DNA from: Candidatus Micrarchaeota archaeon
Lineage (GTDB): Archaea > B1Sed10-29 > B47-G15
NCBI GenBank assembly: GCA_003660975.1
Contig: QMVG01000002.1
Coordinates: forward strand, 53,850 to 117,849
DNA length: 64,000 nucleotides
Reading direction: 5' to 3'
Shown: positions 14,604-46,350 of the stretch, one piece after another
Position numbering within the stretch: position 1 is the first letter of the stretch
Layout: the number at the start of each line of letters is the position of its first letter
The notes under the pieces: model-generated
Database searches by the model: none
What the model was told of the DNA's origin: nothing
What the model saw: only the letters and a program-made list of their open reading frames with translations
Position numbers and translations under genes: made by a program

Positions 14604-15863
14604 ATGTGGGTAGAAAAGTACAGGCCTAAGAACCTAGATGATGTGATAGGTTATCCTTCTGTAGTGGAAAAGCTCAGAATATGGGCAGACAACTGGGAAA
14701 AGGGCAGGCCCCAAAAAGCTCTTTTGTTCTCAGGCAGGCCAGGCATAGGAAAGACAGCAATAGCACTAGCCCTGGCATCCGAATATAACTGGGAAGTGCT
14801 TGAGATGAATGCTTCTGATATAAGGGATAAGAAAAGTATAGAAAGGATTGCTGGTCTTGCCTCTGTTTCAAGAACCTTTTCAGGCAATTTGAGGCTGCTT
14901 CTTTTTGACGAGATTGACGGTCTCTATGCTGCTGACAGGGGAGGAGCCTCTGCTGTGCTTAACATAATAAAGACAGCGAAGTGCCCTGTTATTTTAACAG
15001 CGAACAATGCATGGGACAGGAAGATTGCTAATTTGAGACCTGCTGTTGAGATTATAAGTTTCAAAAAAATCCACCACAGTTCTATAAAAAAGCTGCTCCA
15101 AAAGATAGTTAAAAAAGAAGGCCTTAACATACCAGACACGGTTATTTCATTTATTGCAGAAAATGCAGAAGGGGACGTGCGCTCTGCAATAAATGACTTG
15201 GAGAGCATTGCATTCTCAAAGCACTTTGACAAGGAAGTTCTTGAGAGCATCGCGAAGAGAAACAGGCAAGAGGACATATTCAATGCTATGAAAAAAATCC
15301 TGAAAGAAAAGAACTACTTTGAGAGCATATCAGTTGTTGATGAGCTTTCTGAAGACCCCTCCATGCTCATGGCGTGGATAGAGGAAAACATTCCAGCAGA
15401 GTACAAGAGAGCAGAAGACCTGTTTAGAGCTTTTGATATACTCTCTCGTGCAGACCTCTTTTTTGGGAGGACATTGAGCAGGCAGGATTACTCTTTATGG
15501 AGGTATGCAATTACACTTATGACAGCTGGCGTTAGCTATGCAAAAAAAGAAAAATACCCTGGCTTTACCAGATACAATTTCCCAAAGAAGATCTCTTATT
15601 TGTCAGCCAGTAAAAAGCAGAGGAACATCCTAAAAAGCATTGCCCTGAAAGTAGCTAAGCGCTGCCACCTGTCATCAAAAAAGGTTATTTTAGAATACAT
15701 GCCTCTGATAAAAGTTCTAGCAAAAAAAGAGGCAGTAAAGGTGGCTGCCCAGTTTGAGCTTTCAGATGAAGAGTTGAGTTATCTCGGTGTTAAAGACAGC
15801 AAAAAAGTTGTTAAGGAAGCAAATGCATTAAGGGAGGAATATATTAAAAAACTAGTCGCCTAG
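14604..15863 (+). CDS. rfcL: Replication factor C large subunit
   Basis: 'WVEKYRP', GRPGIGKT, 'EMNASD', 'DEIDG', 'WIEENIP'. Confidence 0.93.
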   Translation: MWVEKYRPKNLDDVIGYPSVVEKLRIWADNWEKGRPQKALLFSGRPGIGKTAIALALASEYNWEVLEMNASDIRDKKSIERIAGLASVSRTFSGNLRLLLFDEIDGLYAADRGGASAVLNIIKTAKCPVILTANNAWDRKIANLRPAVEIISFKKIHHSSIKKLLQKIVKKEGLNIPDTVISFIAENAEGDVRSAINDLESIAFSKHFDKEVLESIAKRNRQEDIFNAMKKILKEKNYFESISVVDELSEDPSMLMAWIEENIPAEYKRAEDLFRAFDILSRADLFFGRTLSRQDYSLWRYAITLMTAGVSYAKKEKYPGFTRYNFPKKISYLSASKKQRNILKSIALKVAKRCHLSSKKVILEYMPLIKVLAKKEAVKVAAQFELSDEELSYLGVKDSKKVVKEANALREEYIKKLVA

Positions 15864-17486
15864 TGGCTTTATATCTATTTCCAACGCAGACACTGGAAGC
15901 TCTATGTCAAAGTTGTTTAGCACAAGCGGATGAATCTCTCCCATGACACCTATTTTCTTTCCATCCAGAAGGATGGCAGCGCACCTTCCTCCTATGAAAG
16001 CAGGGTCTTTTTCTTCAACCACGTCTATCTTTTTTCCACACTCTCTTGCTACTGCCTCTGCCACTGCTTTTATTGATGAGAAATCAGCATTTTTGTGGCA
16101 CAGGGCAACTGCAAGATGCAATTCCTCTCTTGCCTTGTTTTCGCTTTTCTCATCTGGGAAAACAACACGGCCTATCTCAAAAATGTTCTGTGGGTATTCA
16201 TAATGCTTGTTTTCCGAAAGCACTTTCATAAGCCCTGGCAGCAGAGAGTTCCTGATAATATTGTAGTTTTCGTTCTTGGCATTGGCCAATTCAATATATT
16301 TTTCTGCTTTTCTGTTCATCTTTTTGAACTCTTCGTCTACATTTGTTAGGTGGTAATTGTAACACTCTAAGAAGGAAAAGCCAACACAGACCTCTGCAAT
16401 CTTTCTGGCTAATATCTCTTCATAGCTTTCTTCCCCCATTGTGTAAACATTTGGGATTTCTTCTTTAAAGTTGTCATATCCATAAGCAATTGAAATGTCA
16501 TTTATGAGGTCAACAGGATGCAATATGTCTGTTCTATATGCAGGATAAAGGACCTCCAAAACATCGCCCTTTACTCTTGCCTCATGCCCCATCATTGCCA
16601 GCAGTTTTGCCATTTCACTGCCAGAAAGCTTTAGACCAAGCCTCCTGTTCGCGTCAGCTATATCAACCTCCATGCTCAGTGGCTCTAGTTTAGGATAAGA
16701 AATTTCGTTAACCTTAACCTCATATATCTCTCCACCCATATCAGCCAACTGTGCAACAACAATATTTAATGTCTGCTCCACCGTTTGCTTATGCGTGCCA
16801 GTTACATCAATGAAAACATTTTTTGTTTTTTCTGTCACAGCTGTTTCTGCGCTGTTTATTATTGGTGGTAATGACAAAACCTGTTTCTTGCTGTCTATCC
16901 ATATAGGGTATTTTGGACCAGCTAGCAGGTGCCCGTATGCTTTTCCTTTGGGGTGCTCTTCAAGAATTTGCTTAACAGTCATCTCATTATCATAACCCAG
17001 GGGCCTAAACTTGAAGCTGCTGTCAACAGCCTTATATGTCAGCGGAAAAGTTATTGTGTCAAGGTCATACAGGCCTATGCTGGCTTTCTTCCTGTTTCTG
17101 CACTGGGTTGTATGCAACTTCTCTTGCATCTGCATTAAGCTTTTGACAGTATAGTCATCAACCTCTATGCCTTTTACTACTGCATTGGCCACGAACGGTC
17201 TTATCTTAACAGCGTCTTTCTCTAATATTGACTTATAATCTGATTTTTTTACTGCGTACCTTCTCAGCCCTGTTCTTATGCCCAAAAAAGATGAAAGCGC
17301 TCTGGCAAAGCCTTCCTCTGAAAGCATGTCAGGTCTGTTTGGAAATATCTCAACGTCTATCTCTGCGTCAGTCACGGCGCTGAGGTCTGTTCCTAACATA
17401 GGTATTTTCTCTATAAGCTCCTTATCACTAATTTCTTTTCCAAGGTAGTCAAGCACCTTTCTTTTGTTTAATATTATGTTCGGCAT
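15852..17486 (-). CDS. pheT: Phenylalanine-tRNA ligase beta subunit
   Basis: 'PNRPDMLS', 'QEKLH', 'PPIINS', 'YRTDILHPVD', 'GEIHP'. Confidence 0.96.
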   Translation of the reverse strand: MPNIILNKRKVLDYLGKEISDKELIEKIPMLGTDLSAVTDAEIDVEIFPNRPDMLSEEGFARALSSFLGIRTGLRRYAVKKSDYKSILEKDAVKIRPFVANAVVKGIEVDDYTVKSLMQMQEKLHTTQCRNRKKASIGLYDLDTITFPLTYKAVDSSFKFRPLGYDNEMTVKQILEEHPKGKAYGHLLAGPKYPIWIDSKKQVLSLPPIINSAETAVTEKTKNVFIDVTGTHKQTVEQTLNIVVAQLADMGGEIYEVKVNEISYPKLEPLSMEVDIADANRRLGLKLSGSEMAKLLAMMGHEARVKGDVLEVLYPAYRTDILHPVDLINDISIAYGYDNFKEEIPNVYTMGEESYEEILARKIAEVCVGFSFLECYNYHLTNVDEEFKKMNRKAEKYIELANAKNENYNIIRNSLLPGLMKVLSENKHYEYPQNIFEIGRVVFPDEKSENKAREELHLAVALCHKNADFSSIKAVAEAVARECGKKIDVVEEKDPAFIGGRCAAILLDGKKIGVMGEIHPLVLNNFDIELPVSALEIDIKPLGD

Positions 17487-17490
17487 GAAA

Positions 17491-18966
17491 TCAACCCATC
17501 AACCACTTTTTGCTTTGCCTCAATTTTTGGATGTCGTTTTTGTAAAGCTCTCTCAAGTCGTTTATCTTGTAGTAATCCATCATTATTCTGTCAAGACCAG
17601 GCCCCCACGCAAGCACAGGAATATCCTCTCCCAATAGAGGCACAACCACTTCTGGCCTAAATATGCCTGCTCCTCCAAGCTCTATCCATTGTTTCTGAGC
17701 AGGGTGGAATATCTCCATCTCTGTGCTGAAATATGTATAAGGGAAATAAGCAGGCCTAAATCTGGCTTTAAGCTTCATTTTTTTGAAGAACTGCTTCAGG
17801 TAGCCTAAAAGGTGTCTAAAATTGGCATTCTTATCAACAACTATACCCTCAAATTGGTTGAACTCAAAGCTGTGACTCCAATCAACTGTTTCATTCCTAA
17901 AGCACCTACCTATGGCAAAGTACTTTGCAGGCAGGTCTTTTTTTATGTCCAGAGACGCAAGTGTTATAGCACTTAGACAGGTAGTGTGTGTTCTCATGAC
18001 AAGTTTTTTAGCTTCATCTGCACTCCATTTGTAATTCCACCCTTTTGAGCCATGTCCCCCTTCTTCGTGCATTCTTTTGACTCTCTCAACAAGCTCTTTT
18101 TTTGGAAGCTCTCCTTTTCCCTTTACATAAAAGGTATCCTGCATTTCCCTTACTGGATGGTCTTGAGCAGTGAAGAGAGCGTCAAAATTCCAAAAAGCAG
18201 TCTGTATTAATGAACCAGTCATTTCCTTGAAGCCCATTTCAAGCCATATCTTTCTGGCATAGTCTTCTGCCTGCCTTACAAAATGCCTCTTTCCAGGATA
18301 TATGCTTCCTGCCTCTGCTTTAACATCATATTTTCTGAATACTAAGTTTTTCCATTTTCCTGTTTTTATCATTTCAGTGTTCAACTGTGATACTTCTTCT
18401 CTTGTTCCTTTTTTTAGCACAGACAGACCCGCGTTCGTTATCTTAGCGAAAAGCTTTTTCCTTTTCTTTAACTCAATCAAAGAGGCCCTTTTTTCCAGCT
18501 CTTTTAACGCTTTTATCTTGTCTTTGGGAATTTTTCCCTTGCTGATTAAAAACAGCATCTCCTCATGAGGCAGGCTTTTTTTCAAGAATTGCCTGCCTGT
18601 TGCTGTAATTTTTATTTTTCCAGAGGAGATTGTTGCAAGGTTCAGTTTTCTAGCCCATGTAAGAGCTATCTGAATTTCGTTTCCCAGCTCTTTTCTGGCC
18701 TGCTTTAAGCTGATCTCCTTTTCTTTTATAAGATTTAAAAGCCTCCTCTCAGGAAAGCCTTTTTTTATATATTCTCTTGCTTCATCTGACAATTTTATTT
18801 CAGTGAGCTCTTTTTCTTCAATGTCAACAAACTTTTTCTCAGCCAACATGGATATAGCATAGCTTACAGAAGCTTCAGGCAGTTTTGTTATCTTGCTCAA
18901 TTCACATAATTCTCTTTTCTTTCCATCTTTTAGAGCATTCAAAACTTTTATTTCGTGCTTGTGCAT
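17491..18966 (-). CDS. pheS: Phenylalanine-tRNA ligase alpha subunit
   Basis: 'FWNFDALF', 'HPVREMQDTF', 'RTHTT', 'FRNE', 'YFPYT', 'WGPGLDR'. Confidence 0.96.
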   Translation of the reverse strand: MHKHEIKVLNALKDGKKRELCELSKITKLPEASVSYAISMLAEKKFVDIEEKELTEIKLSDEAREYIKKGFPERRLLNLIKEKEISLKQARKELGNEIQIALTWARKLNLATISSGKIKITATGRQFLKKSLPHEEMLFLISKGKIPKDKIKALKELEKRASLIELKKRKKLFAKITNAGLSVLKKGTREEVSQLNTEMIKTGKWKNLVFRKYDVKAEAGSIYPGKRHFVRQAEDYARKIWLEMGFKEMTGSLIQTAFWNFDALFTAQDHPVREMQDTFYVKGKGELPKKELVERVKRMHEEGGHGSKGWNYKWSADEAKKLVMRTHTTCLSAITLASLDIKKDLPAKYFAIGRCFRNETVDWSHSFEFNQFEGIVVDKNANFRHLLGYLKQFFKKMKLKARFRPAYFPYTYFSTEMEIFHPAQKQWIELGGAGIFRPEVVVPLLGEDIPVLAWGPGLDRIMMDYYKINDLRELYKNDIQKLRQSKKWLMG

Positions 18967-18986
18967 ACTCTTACCCTTTTTATGAA

Positions 18987-19060
18987 TGGGGTGGGCCGGA
19001 TTTGAACCAGCGACACCCAGGTCTTCAGCCTGGTGCTCTCCCGGTCTGAGCTACCACCCC
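18987..19060 (-). tRNA. tRNA-Phe(GAA), intronless, CCA not encoded
   Basis: Reverse complement GGGGTGG-TAGCTCAG...CCAGG-CT-GAA-GA-CCTGG...GCTGG-TTCAAAT-CCGGC-CCACCCC-A folds as a cloverleaf. Confidence 0.97.
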
Positions 19061-19549: not shown

Positions 19550-19723
19550 CTTTATTACCTCATTGACTAATGCAATAGTTAATATAAAAAGCCCACCATC
19601 TTATAGTTGTAAAATAAATCATAACTCTGATCCTTTTTAGCTTTGAGTTTCAAAATCAAGCGCATTGCTTATTTTTGGGCCTTCTCTTTATAAATATCTT
19701 TTTACGTAATGCATATGGTGCTT

Positions 19724-20119
19724 ATGAAATTCGTTTTGGATGCGAGTGCTTTCATCAATGCTTCTGCCCTTGACGTGAATGAAGGTGATAGTTACTATAC
19801 TGTATCAGACGTTGAAGAAGAGATAAAAGATGCATCCTCCAAAGGCTTGTTGGAGAGATTGAAGGCCTCTAAGGCCTTGGTGTTTTTGAGCCCTTCAAAA
19901 GAAGCCATAAAAATAGTGGAAAAAGCCGCGTCTAGGTTGGGAAGCATAAGGCATCTGAGCAATACAGATATAAAGGTGCTGGCCCTTGCCCTTGATTTGA
20001 AAGCCACATTAATCTCAGATGACTTCACCATGCAAAACGTTGCTATGGACCTTGGCATAAGCTTTGAGGCTGTTTTGAGAGGCAAGATAAAAGAAAAGAA
20101 GCGTTTCAGGAAGATTTAA
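19724..20119 (+). CDS. Nob1-like PIN-domain nuclease lacking the Zn ribbon
   Basis: 'VLDASAFI', 'LSNTDIKVLALAL', 'SDDFTMQNVA'; ends where the Zn ribbon normally begins. Confidence 0.82.
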   Translation: MKFVLDASAFINASALDVNEGDSYYTVSDVEEEIKDASSKGLLERLKASKALVFLSPSKEAIKIVEKAASRLGSIRHLSNTDIKVLALALDLKATLISDDFTMQNVAMDLGISFEAVLRGKIKEKKRFRKI

Positions 20120-20984: not shown

Positions 20985-21884
20985 TCAAACGCTCAACTTC
21001 ATAAAATCTTCAGCAACTTCTGTGTTTCTGAATATCTGCTTTGCCTCCTTTTTTAGTATCTTAACATCCTCATAACGGGGGCTGAAATGAGTTAGAATTA
21101 GTTGCTTTACTTCTGCCTCTTTCGCAATCCTAGCTGCATCCCTTGCTGTCATATGGCCATAATCATGTGCCTTTTCTTTTATAACATCGCTAAAGGTGGC
21201 CTCCATTATAAGCAGGTCAGAACCCCTTACATAATCTACAATTTTTTTAGAGGGATTGGCATCCATTACTATAGATATCTTCCGTAGGTGCTTTTCCTTT
21301 ACGAGCACATCCTCAGGTTTTATTACTTTGCCCCTGAACCTTATGCTTTTTCCCTCTTTTAACTGTCTGCAAAGCGGATTGTTTAGCAACCCCAGTTTCT
21401 TGAGTTTCTTTTTGTCCAGATTCGGCTCTTTTTTTTCTTCAAACACAAAAGCATAGCAAGGACAAGTGTGCTCAACGCTGAAAGCAGTTACTGAGTAGTC
21501 CTTGTTCTCAAAAATAACTCCGTCCTTTTTTATCTGGTGGACAATTACTTTATAGGAAGGCTCAAAGTAATCCCAATTTACATAAAAATTAACGTGCCTT
21601 CTTATGCCAGATGGACCAAATATGTGCAGCTCTCCATCTCTCTTCATCAAGCTTAGGGATTGGATTAGACCTCCAAGACCAAGCACGTGGTCTGCGTGCA
21701 GATGACTTATAAAGATGTTTTGAACTTTGTAAGGGCTTATTCCAGCTATTGCTAACTGTCTTTGTGTCCCTTCCCCACAATCGAACAGCATTGAGTTTCC
21801 TCTAAACTTTAGGTGAATACTGGGGTGGTTTCTGCTTTTTGTTGGAAGGGAAGCTGAGGTCCCAAGAAATGTTACTTCTATCAT
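20985..21884 (-). CDS. rnz: Ribonuclease Z
   Basis: 'FLGTS', 'DCGEGTQ', HLHADH, 'GHMT', 'LTHFSPRY'; start set at MIEVTFLG. Confidence 0.95.
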   Translation of the reverse strand: MIEVTFLGTSASLPTKSRNHPSIHLKFRGNSMLFDCGEGTQRQLAIAGISPYKVQNIFISHLHADHVLGLGGLIQSLSLMKRDGELHIFGPSGIRRHVNFYVNWDYFEPSYKVIVHQIKKDGVIFENKDYSVTAFSVEHTCPCYAFVFEEKKEPNLDKKKLKKLGLLNNPLCRQLKEGKSIRFRGKVIKPEDVLVKEKHLRKISIVMDANPSKKIVDYVRGSDLLIMEATFSDVIKEKAHDYGHMTARDAARIAKEAEVKQLILTHFSPRYEDVKILKKEAKQIFRNTEVAEDFMKLSV

Positions 21885-21936
21885 AATTTTATTGAGTACT
21901 AACAACTTTTTATATCCAATATGTATATTTTTAAAT

Positions 21937-23283
21937 ATGTTTGATTTTTCTCCTTCCATACTTAATGCAGACGTTGATTATATTGAATTTCGGGCTTCTA
22001 AGATCTTGTCAAACAGCATATCTGTTAAAAATGCAAGGCTTGAGAAAGTTAGCAGTGATACTGCAGAGGACTTTTGTTTTAGGGTTATGGTAGATGGAGC
22101 ATGGGGCATGGCCTCAAGCAATCGCTTTGATAAGATAGATAAAATTAAGAAGGAAGCCATAAAGATGGCAAAGCTTGCTAAGAAAAGAACCTTGGAGTCT
22201 TTCCTAAGCGAGGAGAAAACGCATACGGACAGTGTGGAAGCTAAAGTAAAGGTTAAGAACGAGGACATTCCAATAGACAGAAAAATCAAAGACTTAATTG
22301 AAATGAACAAAGAGATGAAAATAGACAAAAGAATAGTGAATTACTCCCTGCAGTTGTCTGAGCTTAAAACTGAAAAATACTTTATTAATTCTGAATCAAC
22401 AGAGATTTTTTTAAAGCAACAGGACACTTTGCTCTCTTTTTCCTCATACGCAAAGGCAGGCATTTTGCAATCCAGCCACGATGTTTTTGGGGCTCAGAAA
22501 GGATATGAGTTAGTCAAAGAGAATTGGGGTAAGGGAAGAAGGAATGCAGAGAAAAGCATATCTCTGTTGTATGCCAAGAGAATAAAGCCAGGTTCTTATG
22601 ATGTGGTGTTAGATGGAAAGATGGCAGGTGTCTTAGCCCATGAGGCAGTGGGCCATGCGAGTGAAGCAGACGCCGTGTTAACTGGAGAGTCATGTTTTTC
22701 CGGAAAACTAGGAAAGCGCCTGGCCTCCGAGCTTGTGAGCATTGTTGATAATCCAAGGTTGAAATATCAATATGGCTCTTACCCTTATGATGATGAGGGG
22801 GTTAAAAGCAGTAAGACCTCTATAATTGAGAAAGGGATATTAAAGACATATCTTCACTCAAGAGAAACAGCATACAAGTTAAATAGCAAGTCCACAGCCA
22901 ACGCTAGAGCGCAGCACACCAATAGATTTCAATTAGTTAGGATGAGCAACACTTATTTTGATGTTGGTGATTTTAGTAGAGATGAAATTTTTGATTTAAA
23001 GCACGGCATATATCTGGAGGGCAGCAGTGGAGGCGTTGTTGATGTCAGTACAGGTGATTTTCAGTTCGCAGCAGAGTTGGGCAAGACAATAAAGAATGGT
23101 GAAGAAACAGGGCTACTGAGAGACGTGGTTATACATGGAAACATTCTTAAGGTTTTGCAAAAAGTTGACGCTCTTGGAAAGAAAATATACCTGAATCCTG
23201 GAATTTGTGGAAAGGGTTCACAGCTGGTGAGGGTTAGCAGTGGCGGGCCACTTGTAAGAATCAGAGGTGTTAATCTTGCATGA
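21937..23283 (+). CDS. tldD: TldD family metalloprotease
   Basis: 'HEAVGHASEAD', 'YDDEG', 'RMSNTY', 'CGKGSQ'. Confidence 0.92.
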   Translation: MFDFSPSILNADVDYIEFRASKILSNSISVKNARLEKVSSDTAEDFCFRVMVDGAWGMASSNRFDKIDKIKKEAIKMAKLAKKRTLESFLSEEKTHTDSVEAKVKVKNEDIPIDRKIKDLIEMNKEMKIDKRIVNYSLQLSELKTEKYFINSESTEIFLKQQDTLLSFSSYAKAGILQSSHDVFGAQKGYELVKENWGKGRRNAEKSISLLYAKRIKPGSYDVVLDGKMAGVLAHEAVGHASEADAVLTGESCFSGKLGKRLASELVSIVDNPRLKYQYGSYPYDDEGVKSSKTSIIEKGILKTYLHSRETAYKLNSKSTANARAQHTNRFQLVRMSNTYFDVGDFSRDEIFDLKHGIYLEGSSGGVVDVSTGDFQFAAELGKTIKNGEETGLLRDVVIHGNILKVLQKVDALGKKIYLNPGICGKGSQLVRVSSGGPLVRIRGVNLA

Positions 23284-42586: not shown

Positions 42587-43813
42587 ATGAAGATTATAGC
42601 AGATCTTCATCTGCATTCCCATTTTTCAAGAGCCACAAGCCCAAAAATGAACTTGGAGGGCATATCTGAAGGTGCAAGGAAAAAGGGTTTGAACCTATTG
42701 GGCACTGGAGATTTTACTCACCCAAAGTATTTTGAAGAGTTAAAAAGAAAACTGCTGCCAAGCGATAATGGGACAGGCATTTATGAGTATAACGGCATTC
42801 ATTTCATGCTTCAGGTTGAGATATCATTAATATATCAACAGGGAGGGAAGCAACGCAGGGTGCATCATGTAATATTTGCTCCAGATTTTGAGGCTGCAGA
42901 GCAGATTAACAGCATGTTTTCTAAGTGGGGGAGGTTAGATTACGATGGAAGGCCTATTTTTGGAAAATCATCTATGGAATTCATGGATGCTCTGATGGCT
43001 CTATGTCCTGATGCTTTTGTGGTTCCTGCTCATGCTTGGACACCATGGTATGGCATATTCGGAAGCATGAGTGGCTTTGACTCTTTAAAGGAAGCCTTCG
43101 GAGAACATGTGAGACATATCCATGCGATAGAGACAGGTTTAAGTAGCGACCCTGCTATGAACTGGAGGATAAGCGAATTGGATAATGTATCTCTGATATC
43201 AAATAGCGATTCGCACTCCCCATATCCTTGGAGACTTGGGAGAGAAGCAAATGTTTTCGACACGAAAATGACATACAAAGACATAACTAATACTATAACA
43301 ACCAGAAAAGGATTTGAGTATACAATAGAGGTAGATCCAGCCTATGGAAAGTACCACTACGATGGGCATAGAAATTGCGGCGTGTCTATGAGCCCTGAAG
43401 AAGCGAGGAAGCACAATAACATCTGTCCTGTCTGCGGCAAGCCACTTACCCTGGGGGTGGAACACAGGGTTGAGGATTTGGCAGACAGACCAGCAGGATA
43501 TAGACCAAAGCATGCAGTTGATTTTATAAAATTGCTGCCTTTAGCAGAGTTAATCGCCACTGCGAGAAAGAGGAGCTTGTCATCACCTACTGTTACAAAA
43601 GAGATGCACCAAATAATGAAAGATTACTCCGAGCTGTATGTGCTTACTGAAATGCCTGAAGATGAAATAAGGAAAATTGCGGATGAAAGCTTAGCAGAAC
43701 TGATACTCAAAAACAGGAATCAAGAATTGAAAATTAAACCAGGCTATGATGGTGTTTACGGTGAAATAATATTGGAGAGCGGAGCTCAGTCCTCGCTTCT
43801 GGATTTTTCCTGA
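42587..43813 (+). CDS. Endonuclease Q family (PHP domain) protein
   Basis: 'DLHLHS.FSRATS', 'GTGD', 'ETGLSSD', 'GKYH', C-terminal PIP-like QSSLLDF. Confidence 0.9.
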   Translation: MKIIADLHLHSHFSRATSPKMNLEGISEGARKKGLNLLGTGDFTHPKYFEELKRKLLPSDNGTGIYEYNGIHFMLQVEISLIYQQGGKQRRVHHVIFAPDFEAAEQINSMFSKWGRLDYDGRPIFGKSSMEFMDALMALCPDAFVVPAHAWTPWYGIFGSMSGFDSLKEAFGEHVRHIHAIETGLSSDPAMNWRISELDNVSLISNSDSHSPYPWRLGREANVFDTKMTYKDITNTITTRKGFEYTIEVDPAYGKYHYDGHRNCGVSMSPEEARKHNNICPVCGKPLTLGVEHRVEDLADRPAGYRPKHAVDFIKLLPLAELIATARKRSLSSPTVTKEMHQIMKDYSELYVLTEMPEDEIRKIADESLAELILKNRNQELKIKPGYDGVYGEIILESGAQSSLLDFS

Positions 43814-45078
43814 TTTAAAAACTCTACGATTTCTTCAATGCTTTTCCTGTACTCCTTTCCTTTTCTCATATCTCTCAGAGTGAAAATTTTTTCATTAATT
43901 TCTTTTGGTCCTACAATCAGGCAAAAAGGAATCTGTTTTGAAGAAGCATAGTCCATTTGTTTCTTGAGCTTCCTATCCATCAGGTCAATGTCACAATTAA
44001 TGCCCTGCTTTCTCAGTTTTTGGCATATTTTTATGCTCTCTTTTCTTACCTCATCTGTTGCAGAGGCTATGAAAACAGCTGTCTTGCTTGGCAGCTTTGG
44101 CAACATTTTCATATCTTTCATAGCATCTATTATTCTCTCTAGACCTATGGTCGTGCCTGTGGCAGGCAGTTCTTTCCCTGCAAAAAGCCCTATCAGTTTA
44201 TCATACCTGCCCCCACCCGTGATGCTTCCTACCTGTCCTTCTTTAACAACTGTCTCAAACACAAAAGAGGTGTAATAATCAAGCCCACGCGCCAATGACA
44301 AATCAAAACTGATAACCTCATCTGGCACTCCAAACAGTTTAACAGCTTCAAAGAAGTCCTCGCTTTCCCCCACGGTCTCTTTGCTCACATAGTCCTTTAC
44401 TCTGTCAAGCACTTTCTTTGGTTTTCCCTTTATTTTTATTATATCCATGATTTCCTTTACCTTCGCATCATCAACGCCCCTTTTCTTTAATTCGTCAATA
44501 ACACCCATTTCACCTATTTTGTCTATCTTATCAACAGCGACAAAAATATCTTTCTCATTTTCAATGCCCAGCTTTTTGTAAATTTCACTCATTAGTTTCC
44601 TGTTGTTAATCCTTATTTCAAAAGATTTGAAACCCACTGCTTTTAACACGTCATTTGTTATTGCTATTATCTCAGCATCTGCCAGCACACTTTTGCTTCC
44701 AACTATGTCAACATCACATTGCCAGAACTCTCTATACCTGCCCTTTTGCGGTTGGTCATATCGCCAGACCCTGCTTATCTGATACCTCTTGAACGGCACT
44801 GGCATATTCCTATTCATAGCCACATATCTAGCGAGAGGAACAGTTAAATCAAATCTTAAGGCAACATCTCTTCCGCCAAGGTCTTTAAATTTCCATATCA
44901 GCTTTTCCTCTTCTCCGTACTTTTTCATTAATACATCAAGAAACTCAACAGCAGGAGTTTCCAAGGCCTCAAAACCATACCTTTCAAAAACTTCCTTTAT
45001 TTTGGATATCACATATTCCCTTATCCTCATCTCTTCAGGAGAAAAATCTCTGGTCCCCTTAGGTATTGAAAGTCTCAT
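43786..45078 (-). CDS. hisS: Histidine-tRNA ligase
   Basis: 'PKGTRDF', 'LRFDLTVP', 'GRYREF.Q', 'RGLDYY', 'GGGRYD'. Confidence 0.97.
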   Translation of the reverse strand: MRLSIPKGTRDFSPEEMRIREYVISKIKEVFERYGFEALETPAVEFLDVLMKKYGEEEKLIWKFKDLGGRDVALRFDLTVPLARYVAMNRNMPVPFKRYQISRVWRYDQPQKGRYREFWQCDVDIVGSKSVLADAEIIAITNDVLKAVGFKSFEIRINNRKLMSEIYKKLGIENEKDIFVAVDKIDKIGEMGVIDELKKRGVDDAKVKEIMDIIKIKGKPKKVLDRVKDYVSKETVGESEDFFEAVKLFGVPDEVISFDLSLARGLDYYTSFVFETVVKEGQVGSITGGGRYDKLIGLFAGKELPATGTTIGLERIIDAMKDMKMLPKLPSKTAVFIASATDEVRKESIKICQKLRKQGINCDIDLMDRKLKKQMDYASSKQIPFCLIVGPKEINEKIFTLRDMRKGKEYRKSIEEIVEFLNQEKSRSED

Positions 45079-45097
45079 ATTGCACACCTTTCAGAAG

Positions 45098-45170
45098 GGC
45101 CCAGGCCGGGATTTGAACCCGGGCTGAGGGATCCACAGTCCCTAGTGCTAACCGCTACACTACCTGGGCC
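45098..45170 (-). tRNA. tRNA-His(GTG) with genomically encoded G-1
   Basis: Reverse complement G-GCCCAGG...AGGGA-CT-GTG-GA-TCCCT...CCGGG-TTCAAAT-CCCGG-CCTGGGC-C; G-1:C73 pair; full CCA not encoded. Confidence 0.97.
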
Positions 45171-45171
45171 A

Positions 45172-45194
45172 TTAACTATAACATTCTTTATTAA
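45172..45194 (-). promoter_or_regulatory. Shared upstream motif TTAATAAAGAA-N7-GTTAA (copy 2, tRNA-His unit)
   Basis: Same motif and spacing as 19069-19091. Confidence 0.55.
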
Positions 45195-45351
45195 GACATT
45201 ATCTTTTATATTGGCTATGAAACAGATAAATAAAATTAGAGAAATCTTTTCAATGCATATCGTTATGAAGTGAATCGCCCATTAATCCTCACTGCCCTTT
45301 TTCTACATTTTCTACTATATAAATTTATTTCGTGCATTTCATAATATTTTC

Positions 45352-46350
45352 ATGCGCAAAATATCTCTGCAAAGCAAGGTAAAAGGAATACCCCGCTGCA
45401 ATTGGTGCTACCACAGGTGTGTTATCCCCGAAGGTAAAACAGGCATATGCCACAACAACATAAATATAAATGGCGAGCTTTACAGTCAGGTCTACGGCAA
45501 GGCAGTTTCAATGGCAGTAGACCCAATAGAAAAGAAGCCACTGTATCACTTCCTTCCAGGAACAACAGCTTTTTCAATAGCCACGACAGGTTGCAATTTC
45601 AGATGCAAACACTGCCAAAACTGGGAGATATCCCAGGCAAAACCAGGAGATTTGCCAACACATGATGCAATGCCTGAAGACATAGTTGAAATGGCAGTGA
45701 GGACTGCATCGTCTTCTATAGCATACACATATAATGAGCCAACAGTTTTCTTTGATTACGCTCACGATACCGGCATACTTGCACGCAAAAAAGGTTTAAA
45801 AAACATTTTCGTGACAAATGGCTACATGACCCCAGAAGCAGTTGAGCTTGCTGCTAAGGACTTTTTGGATGCCTCAAACATAGACATAAAAGGAGACGAG
45901 AACTTTTACAGAAAGGTTGTAGGCGCTGATTACAACAACGTACTGGAAAATGTGAAGAATCAGTATAAAGCAGGCATTTTCATAGAGGTAACTACATTGA
46001 TAATACCAGGTTTCAATGACAATGCTGATTTTATTAGGGAAATAGCAGCTTTCCTGAAATCTCTTTCAAAGGACATACCATGGCACTTTAGCGCATTTTA
46101 TCCTGCCTACCAGATGAGGGATGTTCCTCCAACACCAAGAGAAACAATTTTGAAAATGTGCGAGATAGCAAAAGATGAGGGAATGCACTATGTTTACGCA
46201 GGCAATATATGGGATAGCGGTTATGATAACAGCTATTGCCCTTACTGTGGTGCATTGCTTGTAAGGAGAAAAGGATATGATGTTGAACTTTTAATCCATG
46301 AAAACAAATGCCCAAACTGTGGCAGGAAGCTGAATTTTGTTTTAAAGTGA
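45352..46350 (+). CDS. AmmeMemoRadiSam-type radical SAM enzyme
   Basis: 'DPIEKKPLYHF', CNFRCKHC, 'QNWEISQ', 'YTYNEP'. Confidence 0.92.
   Translation: MRKISLQSKVKGIPRCNWCYHRCVIPEGKTGICHNNININGELYSQVYGKAVSMAVDPIEKKPLYHFLPGTTAFSIATTGCNFRCKHCQNWEISQAKPGDLPTHDAMPEDIVEMAVRTASSSIAYTYNEPTVFFDYAHDTGILARKKGLKNIFVTNGYMTPEAVELAAKDFLDASNIDIKGDENFYRKVVGADYNNVLENVKNQYKAGIFIEVTTLIIPGFNDNADFIREIAAFLKSLSKDIPWHFSAFYPAYQMRDVPPTPRETILKMCEIAKDEGMHYVYAGNIWDSGYDNSYCPYCGALLVRRKGYDVELLIHENKCPNCGRKLNFVLK

Follow-up and report, generated by a model that had tools for sequence, protein, structure and literature searches.

Cognate tRNA genes beside aminoacyl-tRNA synthetase genes in a Micrarchaeota genome: probable tRNA-punctuated co-transcripts

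The tRNA-His/hisS locus and the other cognate junctions

The stretch of DNA analysed here (the window) comprises 64,000 nucleotides (nt) of contig QMVG01000002.1 (positions 53,850 to 117,849 of the forward strand) from GCA_003660975.1, the metagenome assembly of a Candidatus Micrarchaeota archaeon. In our handles it is G000:C2:53850-117849, G000 being the assembly, and positions below are those of the window unless a contig is given. It carries a tRNA-His(GTG) gene directly upstream of hisS, encoding histidyl-tRNA synthetase (HisRS), and a tRNA-Phe(GAA) gene directly upstream of pheS and pheT, all on the minus strand, and ARAGORN found no other tRNA genes in the window. Both pairs had been noticed in an earlier reading of the letters alone (the sequence-only reading), which took them as two occurrences of a selected tRNA-leader architecture; the pairs are real, but they are two of six such cognate junctions in this genome, and we consider it probable that at these junctions tRNA and synthetase genes are transcribed as single units punctuated by the tRNAs.

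The tRNA-His gene was placed at 45097-45169 (minus strand) by ARAGORN and at 45169-45098 by the Rfam tRNA model (64.8 bits, E = 6.6e-14), and it is from the latter alignment that 45098 is taken as the discriminator C73. The G at 45170, immediately 5' of G1, is a genome-encoded G-1 opposite C73, and a G is encoded at this position in 8/8 tRNA-His genes looked at in this genome and its relatives. CCA is not encoded, as C73 is followed by C-T-T. The spacer to hisS contains no T-run and no space for a B recognition element (BRE) and TATA box plus a start site, and it holds a Shine-Dalgarno (SD) motif, AGGTG (45089-45085), 6 nt 5' of the hisS ATG (45078-45076), which is complementary to the 3' end of the genome's own 16S rRNA (...GATCACCTCCT). 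The sequence-only reading had described the encoded G-1, C73 and a 19-nt spacer with AGGTG before the ATG, and ARAGORN, Rfam and the sequence bear this out. The product is a complete HisRS (Pfam tRNA-synt_His, 1.7e-51; HGTP_anticodon, 1.4e-19), whose N-terminus MRLSIPKGTRD matches those of relatives residue for residue (e.g. MNLKPPKGTRD), and therefore the start is the ATG at 45078 and not an in-frame GTG at 45087. The 3' end of hisS is overlapped by a convergent open reading frame (ORF) at 42587-43813 (plus strand), and so hisS is the last gene of the unit.

Upstream of the tRNA lies a 181-nt divergent intergenic region (45171-45351) with a candidate TATA-like box about 37 nt upstream of G-1, and AT-rich boxes resembling it are found approximately 25-40 nt upstream of other tRNAs in the genome. 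An Rfam scan of 44900-45400 (E<=1) gave no match to the T-box model or any other leader family; apart from the tRNA it gave only a look-alike of the mascRNA type, which covers the tRNA's own bases, and one weak snoRNA hit.

The Phe unit was also confirmed, as tRNA-Phe, 20 nt, pheS, 4 nt and pheT, with Pfam matches of pheS to tRNA-synt_2d (4e-80) and of pheT to tRNA_synthFbeta (6.2e-49), B5 and B3_4. The genes neighbouring hisS and pheS are unrelated ones and do not form an amino-acid biosynthesis cluster. A tRNase Z gene (TIGR02651, 356 bits, above cut-off, G000:C2:74840-75727 (minus strand), window 20991-21878) lies 2 kb upstream of the Phe unit on the same strand; between it and tRNA-Phe are an ORF of 277 amino acids (aa), a divergent PIN-domain gene (19709-20119, plus strand) and a 72-aa zinc-finger ORF.

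Table 1. Locations of the tRNA-synthetase units and associated features (window positions, or contig)
Feature	Location	Strand	Basis or remarks
tRNA-His(GTG), encoded G-1 = 45170, discriminator C73 = 45098	45098..45170	-	ARAGORN, Rfam RF00005, sequence
tRNA-His/hisS spacer, 19 nt, CTTCTGAAAGGTGTGCAAT	45079..45097	-	sequence
hisS, histidyl-tRNA synthetase, 430 aa, coordinates with stop	43786..45078	-	Pfam, ORF table, N-terminal alignment
candidate TATA-like box AATATAAAAG for the tRNA-His/hisS unit	45203..45212	-	putative, read from sequence
tRNA-Phe(GAA), discriminator A73	18987..19060	-	ARAGORN, sequence
TATA-like CTATAATTAATAAAG of tRNA-Phe	~19097-19083	-	sequence
tRNA-Phe/pheS spacer, 20 nt, TTCATAAAAAGGGTAAGAGT	18967..18986	-	sequence
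pheS and pheT	15852..18966	-	pheS 18966-17491, pheT 17486-15852, 4 nt apart
tRNase Z gene	20985..21959	-	NCBIfam TIGR02651, ORF
tRNA-Cys(GCA), 17 nt, cysS	contig C5		
tRNA-Ser(GGA), ~31 nt, serS, TAA abutting tRNA-Lys(CTT), 2 nt (TT), ATG of class I lysS	contig C8, junctions 32186/32187 and 32113/32112		
argS, stop TAA abutting tRNA-Arg(TCT) at 0 nt, then T7	contig C3, junction 33221/33222		

The whole assembly (1.33 Mb, 130 contigs, 89.7% complete) was surveyed for such adjacency, as the sequence-only reading had proposed. ARAGORN with intron search gave 55 tRNA calls, the crude ORFs flanking every tRNA (94 proteins) were run against Pfam, and seven Pfam family searches located synthetase genes at 19 loci, with PheRS counted once and some enzymes assigned to Pfam family only (Ile/Val/Leu/Met, Pro/Thr/Gly, Asp/Asn, Tyr/Trp). 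Junctions between a tRNA and a synthetase gene were found at 6/19 loci and every one of the tRNAs is cognate (Phe, His, Cys, Ser, Lys and Arg), while at the remaining 13 no tRNA lies within 2,011 nt. At five of the six the tRNA lies upstream of the synthetase gene on the same strand, with its 3' end 2 nt (Lys), 17 nt (Cys), 19 nt (His), 20 nt (Phe) or approximately 31 nt (Ser; 2-32 nt is the range over all five) from the ATG. Thus "leader" was too narrow a term for the architecture, as tRNA-Arg follows argS. The tRNA-Phe, tRNA-His and tRNA-Cys genes found in these units are the only ones of their kind in the assembly, and all of the linked enzymes are canonical by Pfam (HisRS, PheRS, CysRS, SerRS, class I LysRS and ArgRS). 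The tRNA-Cys-cysS unit is part of a cluster of four synthetase genes within 10 kb (C5:34270-44139), whose other members are two Ile/Val/Leu-type genes of class I (969 and 783 aa) and one G/H/P/S/T-type gene of class II (492 aa); the unit is on the plus strand and the other three genes are on the minus strand.

To ask how often random isotype labels would give such a result, we used 43 tRNAs, after removal of 12 of the 55 calls (10 on the bacterial-looking contigs C6, C96, C108 and C109, a "tRNA-Gly" with a 2,153-nt intron and a "tRNA-Stop"). The exact probability of 6/6 junction tRNAs being cognate is P = 9.1e-9, and in 2,000,000 label shuffles the best outcome was 5/6, reached twice. This upholds the part of the earlier claim that preferred selection to chance. 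A same-strand ORF start lies within approximately 35 nt of ten tRNAs, and 5/10 of these ORFs (crude ORFs, 1,286 in the genome) are the cognate synthetase. The sequence-only reading had also seen a shared TTC at or next to the start of the two tRNA trailers; this was rejected as a motif, as 38/43 trailers in the genome start with T, and those of Cys, Ser and Lys start with TAA or TTA.

Recurrence of cognate linkage in other genomes

For synteny, 40 relatives were available, none of them from the family of G000; 17 share its order, a further 13 its class and the remaining 10 its domain. All genomes compared are metagenome-assembled, and the relatives do not count as independent samples. Loci with 1.5-kb flanks were taken for hisS, pheS, lysS, cysS, serS and argS, the 29 best matches among relatives in each case, and searched with ARAGORN -i. 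Without intron search many of the relatives' tRNAs were missed, and with it six intron-bearing tRNAs were miscalled, so their isotypes were re-read by eye from the anticodon loop (seven table rows, as one tRNA is shared by lysS and serS loci); the re-read isotypes supply 3/9 of the Lys, 1/7 of the Cys and 2/8 of the Arg counts in Table 2. Since ARAGORN assigned wrong isotypes to intron-bearing tRNAs, automated adjacency surveys would undercount cognate pairs. The tRNAs adjacent to the relatives' synthetase genes often have non-canonical or multiple introns of up to approximately 130 nt (L101, L105, L106, L129, L194, L198).

Table 2. Cognate tRNAs on the same strand as synthetase genes of relatives (distances refer to the ends of the protein match rather than to confirmed start codons)
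Enzyme	Side of synthetase gene	Within 150 nt (testable loci)	Farther
His	upstream	7/26	1 at 1,277 nt
Lys	upstream	9/27	3 at 311-645 nt
Cys	upstream	7/28	4 at 314-474 nt
Arg	downstream	8/29	7 tRNA-Arg(TCT) at 220-667 nt
Phe	upstream	0/27	none
Ser	upstream	0/29	1 at 173 nt

Cognate tRNAs therefore recur at the hisS, lysS, cysS and argS loci of several families (the seven linked hisS loci come from f2, f4 (three), f8, f9 and f21), with no non-cognate tRNA within 150 nt on the same strand at the relatives' loci for these four enzymes. The expected synteny did not extend to the Phe pair, as the relatives' pheS loci have no tRNA of any kind (0/29), and at hisS it is patchy; the tRNA-Phe/pheS pair is private to this lineage among the relatives examined. 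At gltX, taken as a control, tRNA-Glu was found at 0/29 of the relatives' loci and any tRNA at 1/29. Twelve of the relatives' junctions are of 40 nt or less and several of these have SD-like motifs. The near-identical geometry of the His and Phe units to which the sequence-only reading drew attention (19 and 20 nt) holds within G000, but neither spacer length nor spacer sequence recurs in relatives.

The order serS followed by tRNA-Lys(CTT), the leader of lysS, was found in nine of the relatives' genomes, and in many relatives serS and lysS adjoin with tRNA-Lys in between. In five f4 genomes a non-cognate tRNA-Gly(GCC) precedes serS, the f4 array being tRNA-Val(TAC) - tRNA-Gly(GCC) - serS - tRNA-Lys(CTT) - lysS (loci within L159-L187 and L099-L127).

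A wider search of genome contigs with a HisRS alignment listed 80 loci, mostly from Bacteroidota and Patescibacteria with about six archaeal ones. Among these listed matches, tRNA-His lies upstream of hisS on the same strand at two Patescibacteria loci (72 and 128 nt; L228, L236) and approximately 1,300 nt upstream at one further locus, while none was found at the Bacteroidota loci or at the six or so archaeal ones. Cognate tRNA-His/hisS linkage may thus extend to small-genome bacteria (Patescibacteria/CPR, the Candidate Phyla Radiation). A second set consisted of 80 hisS loci from metagenomes, of unassigned taxonomy and with HisRS of 39-55% identity, and here tRNA-His was found 720 nt upstream in 2/80 and approximately 200 nt downstream in 2/80, besides a single directly upstream case considered below. 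Seven of these loci, with HisRS of 40-43% identity (L365, L368, L369, L371, L375, L377, L378), have a non-cognate tRNA-Ala(CGC) directly after hisS on the same strand.

In a maximum likelihood HisRS tree of 30 rows, the enzymes track taxonomic families and the eight tRNA-linked genes do not cluster; neither of the rows nearest to that of G000 is linked (G038, which has a long branch, and G002). Linkage requires seven label changes on this tree, at least six of them forced by well-supported branches, and 290/500 shuffles were as low. This scatter suggests that the linkage has been gained or lost repeatedly and has not spread as one cassette, and cassette transfer of tRNA-His/hisS is ruled out by the tree. 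It is likely that cognate linkage has been favoured by selection in this small-genome archaeal group.

Transcription of the units and alternative explanations

The archaeal TATA box is centred approximately 26 nt upstream of the start site, and junction spacers of 0, 2, 17, 19 and 20 nt are too short for a BRE/TATA plus a start site; therefore no separate promoter fits into the spacers, with the possible exception of that of serS, which starts TAATTTAAAT about 31 nt before the ATG and is ambiguous, as it could conceivably hold a promoter. The trailers point in the same direction, as a run of four or more T was found after 0/5 leader tRNAs and 12/38 other tRNAs, although this contrast is not significant alone. 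Repeated trailer modules with hairpins and T-runs come after at least 12 of the stand-alone tRNAs and after 0/5 leader tRNAs. BLAST with three of these modules gave 19 hits in the genome, every one of them downstream of a tRNA at a distance of up to 150 nt. The modules may be terminators or processing modules specific to tRNAs, or else a miniature element that targets them. The modules, of 30-130 nt, are on contigs C1-C5 (e.g. C1:67066-67165, C4:56463-56552, C1:66340-66405) and the tRNAs preceding them are Leu (three), Val (three), Gln (two), Thr, Ala, Ile and Ser. The His, Cys and Ser ATGs are preceded at 5-8 nt by SD-like motifs complementary to the 16S 3' end. The genome encodes the processing machinery, including an RNase P RNA (162 bits), Rpp21 (Pfam) and RNase Z (356 bits). 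In a separate observation on this machinery, a tRNA-Gly(GCC) lies approximately 12 nt before an ORF with an RNase P Rpr2/Rpp21 domain (G000:C8:3808-4272), which would place a pre-tRNA next to a subunit gene of its own processing enzyme.

From these arrangements we infer, as the probable explanation, that cognate tRNA and synthetase genes form single transcription units, namely tRNA-His-hisS, tRNA-Phe-pheS-pheT, tRNA-Cys-cysS, tRNA-Ser-serS-tRNA-Lys-lysS and argS-tRNA-Arg. A promoter upstream of the tRNA would drive a tRNA-mRNA precursor, in which RNase P would trim the 5' leader, with the encoded G-1 kept, and tRNase Z would cut after C73 (45098), freeing the tRNA for CCA addition. The hisS mRNA would then start at 45097 with a 19-nt leader carrying the AGGTG ribosome-binding site, while the lysS mRNA would be left with a 2-nt, effectively leaderless 5' end, and the RNase P cut would end the serS and argS mRNAs at their stop codons. 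In such a transcript the tRNAs would serve as punctuation, with the supply of any one of them hard-wired to that of its charging enzyme.

Several observations weigh against this interpretation. Besides the weak T-run contrast, some of the relatives' spacers (36-57 nt; His in G003, G017 and G028, Lys in G022) contain TATA-like runs, and so adjacency can probably persist with separate promoters. No tRNA-His was found within 1.5 kb at 18/26 testable hisS loci of relatives. Among the 80 metagenome loci only one has tRNA-His directly upstream of hisS, at 32 nt, and the five closest (51-55% identity, L300-L304) are without tRNA-His, two of them having less than 500 nt of upstream flank. The steady-state levels of a tRNA and an mRNA are also normally very different, and one promoter is not obviously enough for both. 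A search for RNA sequencing runs covering window 43786-45400 listed none.

For the cognate nature of the pairs, simple co-expression with linkage is our favoured explanation, with a good measure of confidence, over a regulatory role of the tRNA. In such a role the tRNA would serve as an operator, with the synthetase binding its cognate tRNA while this is still part of the mRNA and so blocking the ribosome-binding site or delaying release by tRNase Z, and excess enzyme would repress its own synthesis as a speculative further layer upon co-transcription. We regard this as rather unlikely. It would explain the strict cognate specificity of the junctions, and the complete tRNA directly upstream of the SD or start codon is the geometry that control of the thrS type requires; in E. 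coli thrS such an operator is known. In G000 the SD and AUG are 2-32 nt from the acceptor end contacted by synthetases, and four relatives have 12-19 nt between tRNA-Lys and the lysS ATG. However, spacer length and sequence are not conserved, ranging from 6 to more than 300 nt in relatives, tRNA-Arg is downstream of argS in G000 and at 16 of the relatives' loci, where occlusion of the start is impossible, and serS is led by the non-cognate tRNA-Gly(GCC) in the five f4 genomes. Minimum free energy folds of the tRNA, spacer and 33 nt of coding sequence for five units, which had no shuffle control and are not used as evidence, kept the cloverleaf acceptor stems, and in none of them did the tRNA body convincingly sequester the SD. 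A regulatory role has been speculated for the tRNA-His half in the 5' untranslated region (UTR) of valS in N. equitans (PMC3491384). It is similarly doubtful that lysS is a special case, in which the AUG, 2 nt from the tRNA and with no SD, would be translatable only once tRNase Z makes a leaderless mRNA, or that unprocessed cognate tRNA leaders are synthetase feedback elements in small-genome (DPANN-type) archaea generally. If the tRNA did act as an operator, the synthesis of each enzyme would be gated by the maturation of its own substrate, and archaea would have an equivalent of T-box and thrS control in which the tRNA gene itself is the element.

A less likely explanation still is linkage alone, by which adjacency would keep co-adapted tRNA and synthetase alleles together during recombination or transfer, with separate promoters for each. 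The variable spacers of relatives, some with TATA-like runs, would agree with this, as would the occurrence of the tRNA either upstream or downstream and of cognate tRNAs 220-670 nt away in several relatives, and pylT-pylS is thought to travel as a unit (PMC9499178). The G000 spacers of 0, 2, 17, 19 and 20 nt leave no room for promoters, however, and with a HisRS tree that follows families and leaves the linked genes unclustered, the distribution is not accounted for by a mobile cassette. That the genes adjoin by chance in a compact genome, or through an artefact of assembly, is highly improbable. Although gene density is high and ten tRNAs have a same-strand ORF start close by, half of those ORFs are the cognate synthetase, out of approximately 1,290 crude ORFs, the probability of all six junction tRNAs being cognate is P = 9e-9, and the same pairs are present in independent assemblies.

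Comparison with known systems and further observations

In archaea little is established on the means by which a tRNA and its charging enzyme are kept in balance, whereas bacteria use T-boxes, attenuators and tRNA mimics. Here a third of the synthetase genes are joined to their own tRNA genes, some at 0-2 nt, and the linkage recurs across several small-genome archaeal families. Were tRNA and synthetase co-transcribed as we propose, their output would be coupled at the promoter and tRNA-processing enzymes would define mRNA ends, as in mitochondria, and the units would offer a simple experimental system for self-regulation of a synthetase via its own pre-tRNA. In metagenome genomes with poor annotation the junctions also pin down operon boundaries and start codons, and such linked natural tRNA/synthetase pairs are easy to mine.

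Mitochondrial polycistronic transcripts are punctuated by tRNAs, and a like abutment of 0 to a few nt was found at serS/tRNA-Lys/lysS (TAA, tRNA, TT, ATG) and argS/tRNA-Arg (TAA, tRNA), but not at His, Phe and Cys, which have SD-bearing leaders of 17-20 nt. Unlike in mitochondria, this is a chromosome of the free-living archaeal type, only some of the units are punctuated in this way, and the tRNA matches the neighbouring synthetase. A bacterial tRNA-protein operon is thrU-tyrU-glyT-thrT-tufB of E. coli, in which tRNAs are co-transcribed with a gene of the translation apparatus and then excised by RNase P and 3' nucleases, as would be the case here; the tufB tRNAs have no cognate relation to the protein. 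In the translational operator of E. coli thrS, ThrRS binds a tRNA-Thr mimic just upstream of the SD. T-box leaders precede synthetase genes of Gram-positive bacteria (PMC2879506). Both resemble the present units in tying synthetase expression to the cognate tRNA via an RNA element just upstream of the coding sequence, with regulation being putative here, and they are mimics or sensors acting on tRNA in trans, whereas in the present units a functional tRNA gene takes that place.

A textbook archaeal parallel in arrangement is pylT-pylS of the pylTSBCD cluster in Methanosarcinaceae and relatives, where a tRNA is likewise directly upstream of its own synthetase gene on the same strand (PMC9499178). 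That pair serves the 21st amino acid and sits with biosynthesis genes in a dedicated transferable cluster, whereas the pairs described here are housekeeping ones, six in one genome, with some junctions of 0-2 nt. RNA-seq has placed a tRNA-Lys within the 5'-UTR of TK0306 in T. kodakarensis (PMC4247193), and in N. equitans it has shown tRNA precursors merging with adjacent mRNAs and tRNA-sRNA dicistrons cut by RNase Z (PMC3491384). As proposed here, these have a tRNA in the 5' part of a longer transcript with the downstream RNA freed by tRNA-processing enzymes. Those are isolated cases with no cognate relation (a tRNA-Lys paired with a helicase gene; the tRNA-His half with valS, the one case that involves a synthetase gene), whereas the pairing here is systematically cognate and recurs across families. 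A search of full-text literature, from which most subscription journals are missing, turned up no account of archaea in which tRNA and synthetase genes for canonical amino acids are systematically linked in cognate pairs.

Some further features of the assembly were noted. The tRNAs on contigs C6, C96, C108 and C109 look bacterial, with no introns and, on C6, a bacterial-type -10-like box upstream, and C109 carries a tight array of six tRNAs; these contigs are likely to be contamination of the bin despite its estimate of 0.27%. The two parts of the 16S rRNA gene lie at the ends of different contigs (C5:73100-73943 and C3:116603-117234), and a tRNA-Ala(GGC) follows the 3' half on C3.

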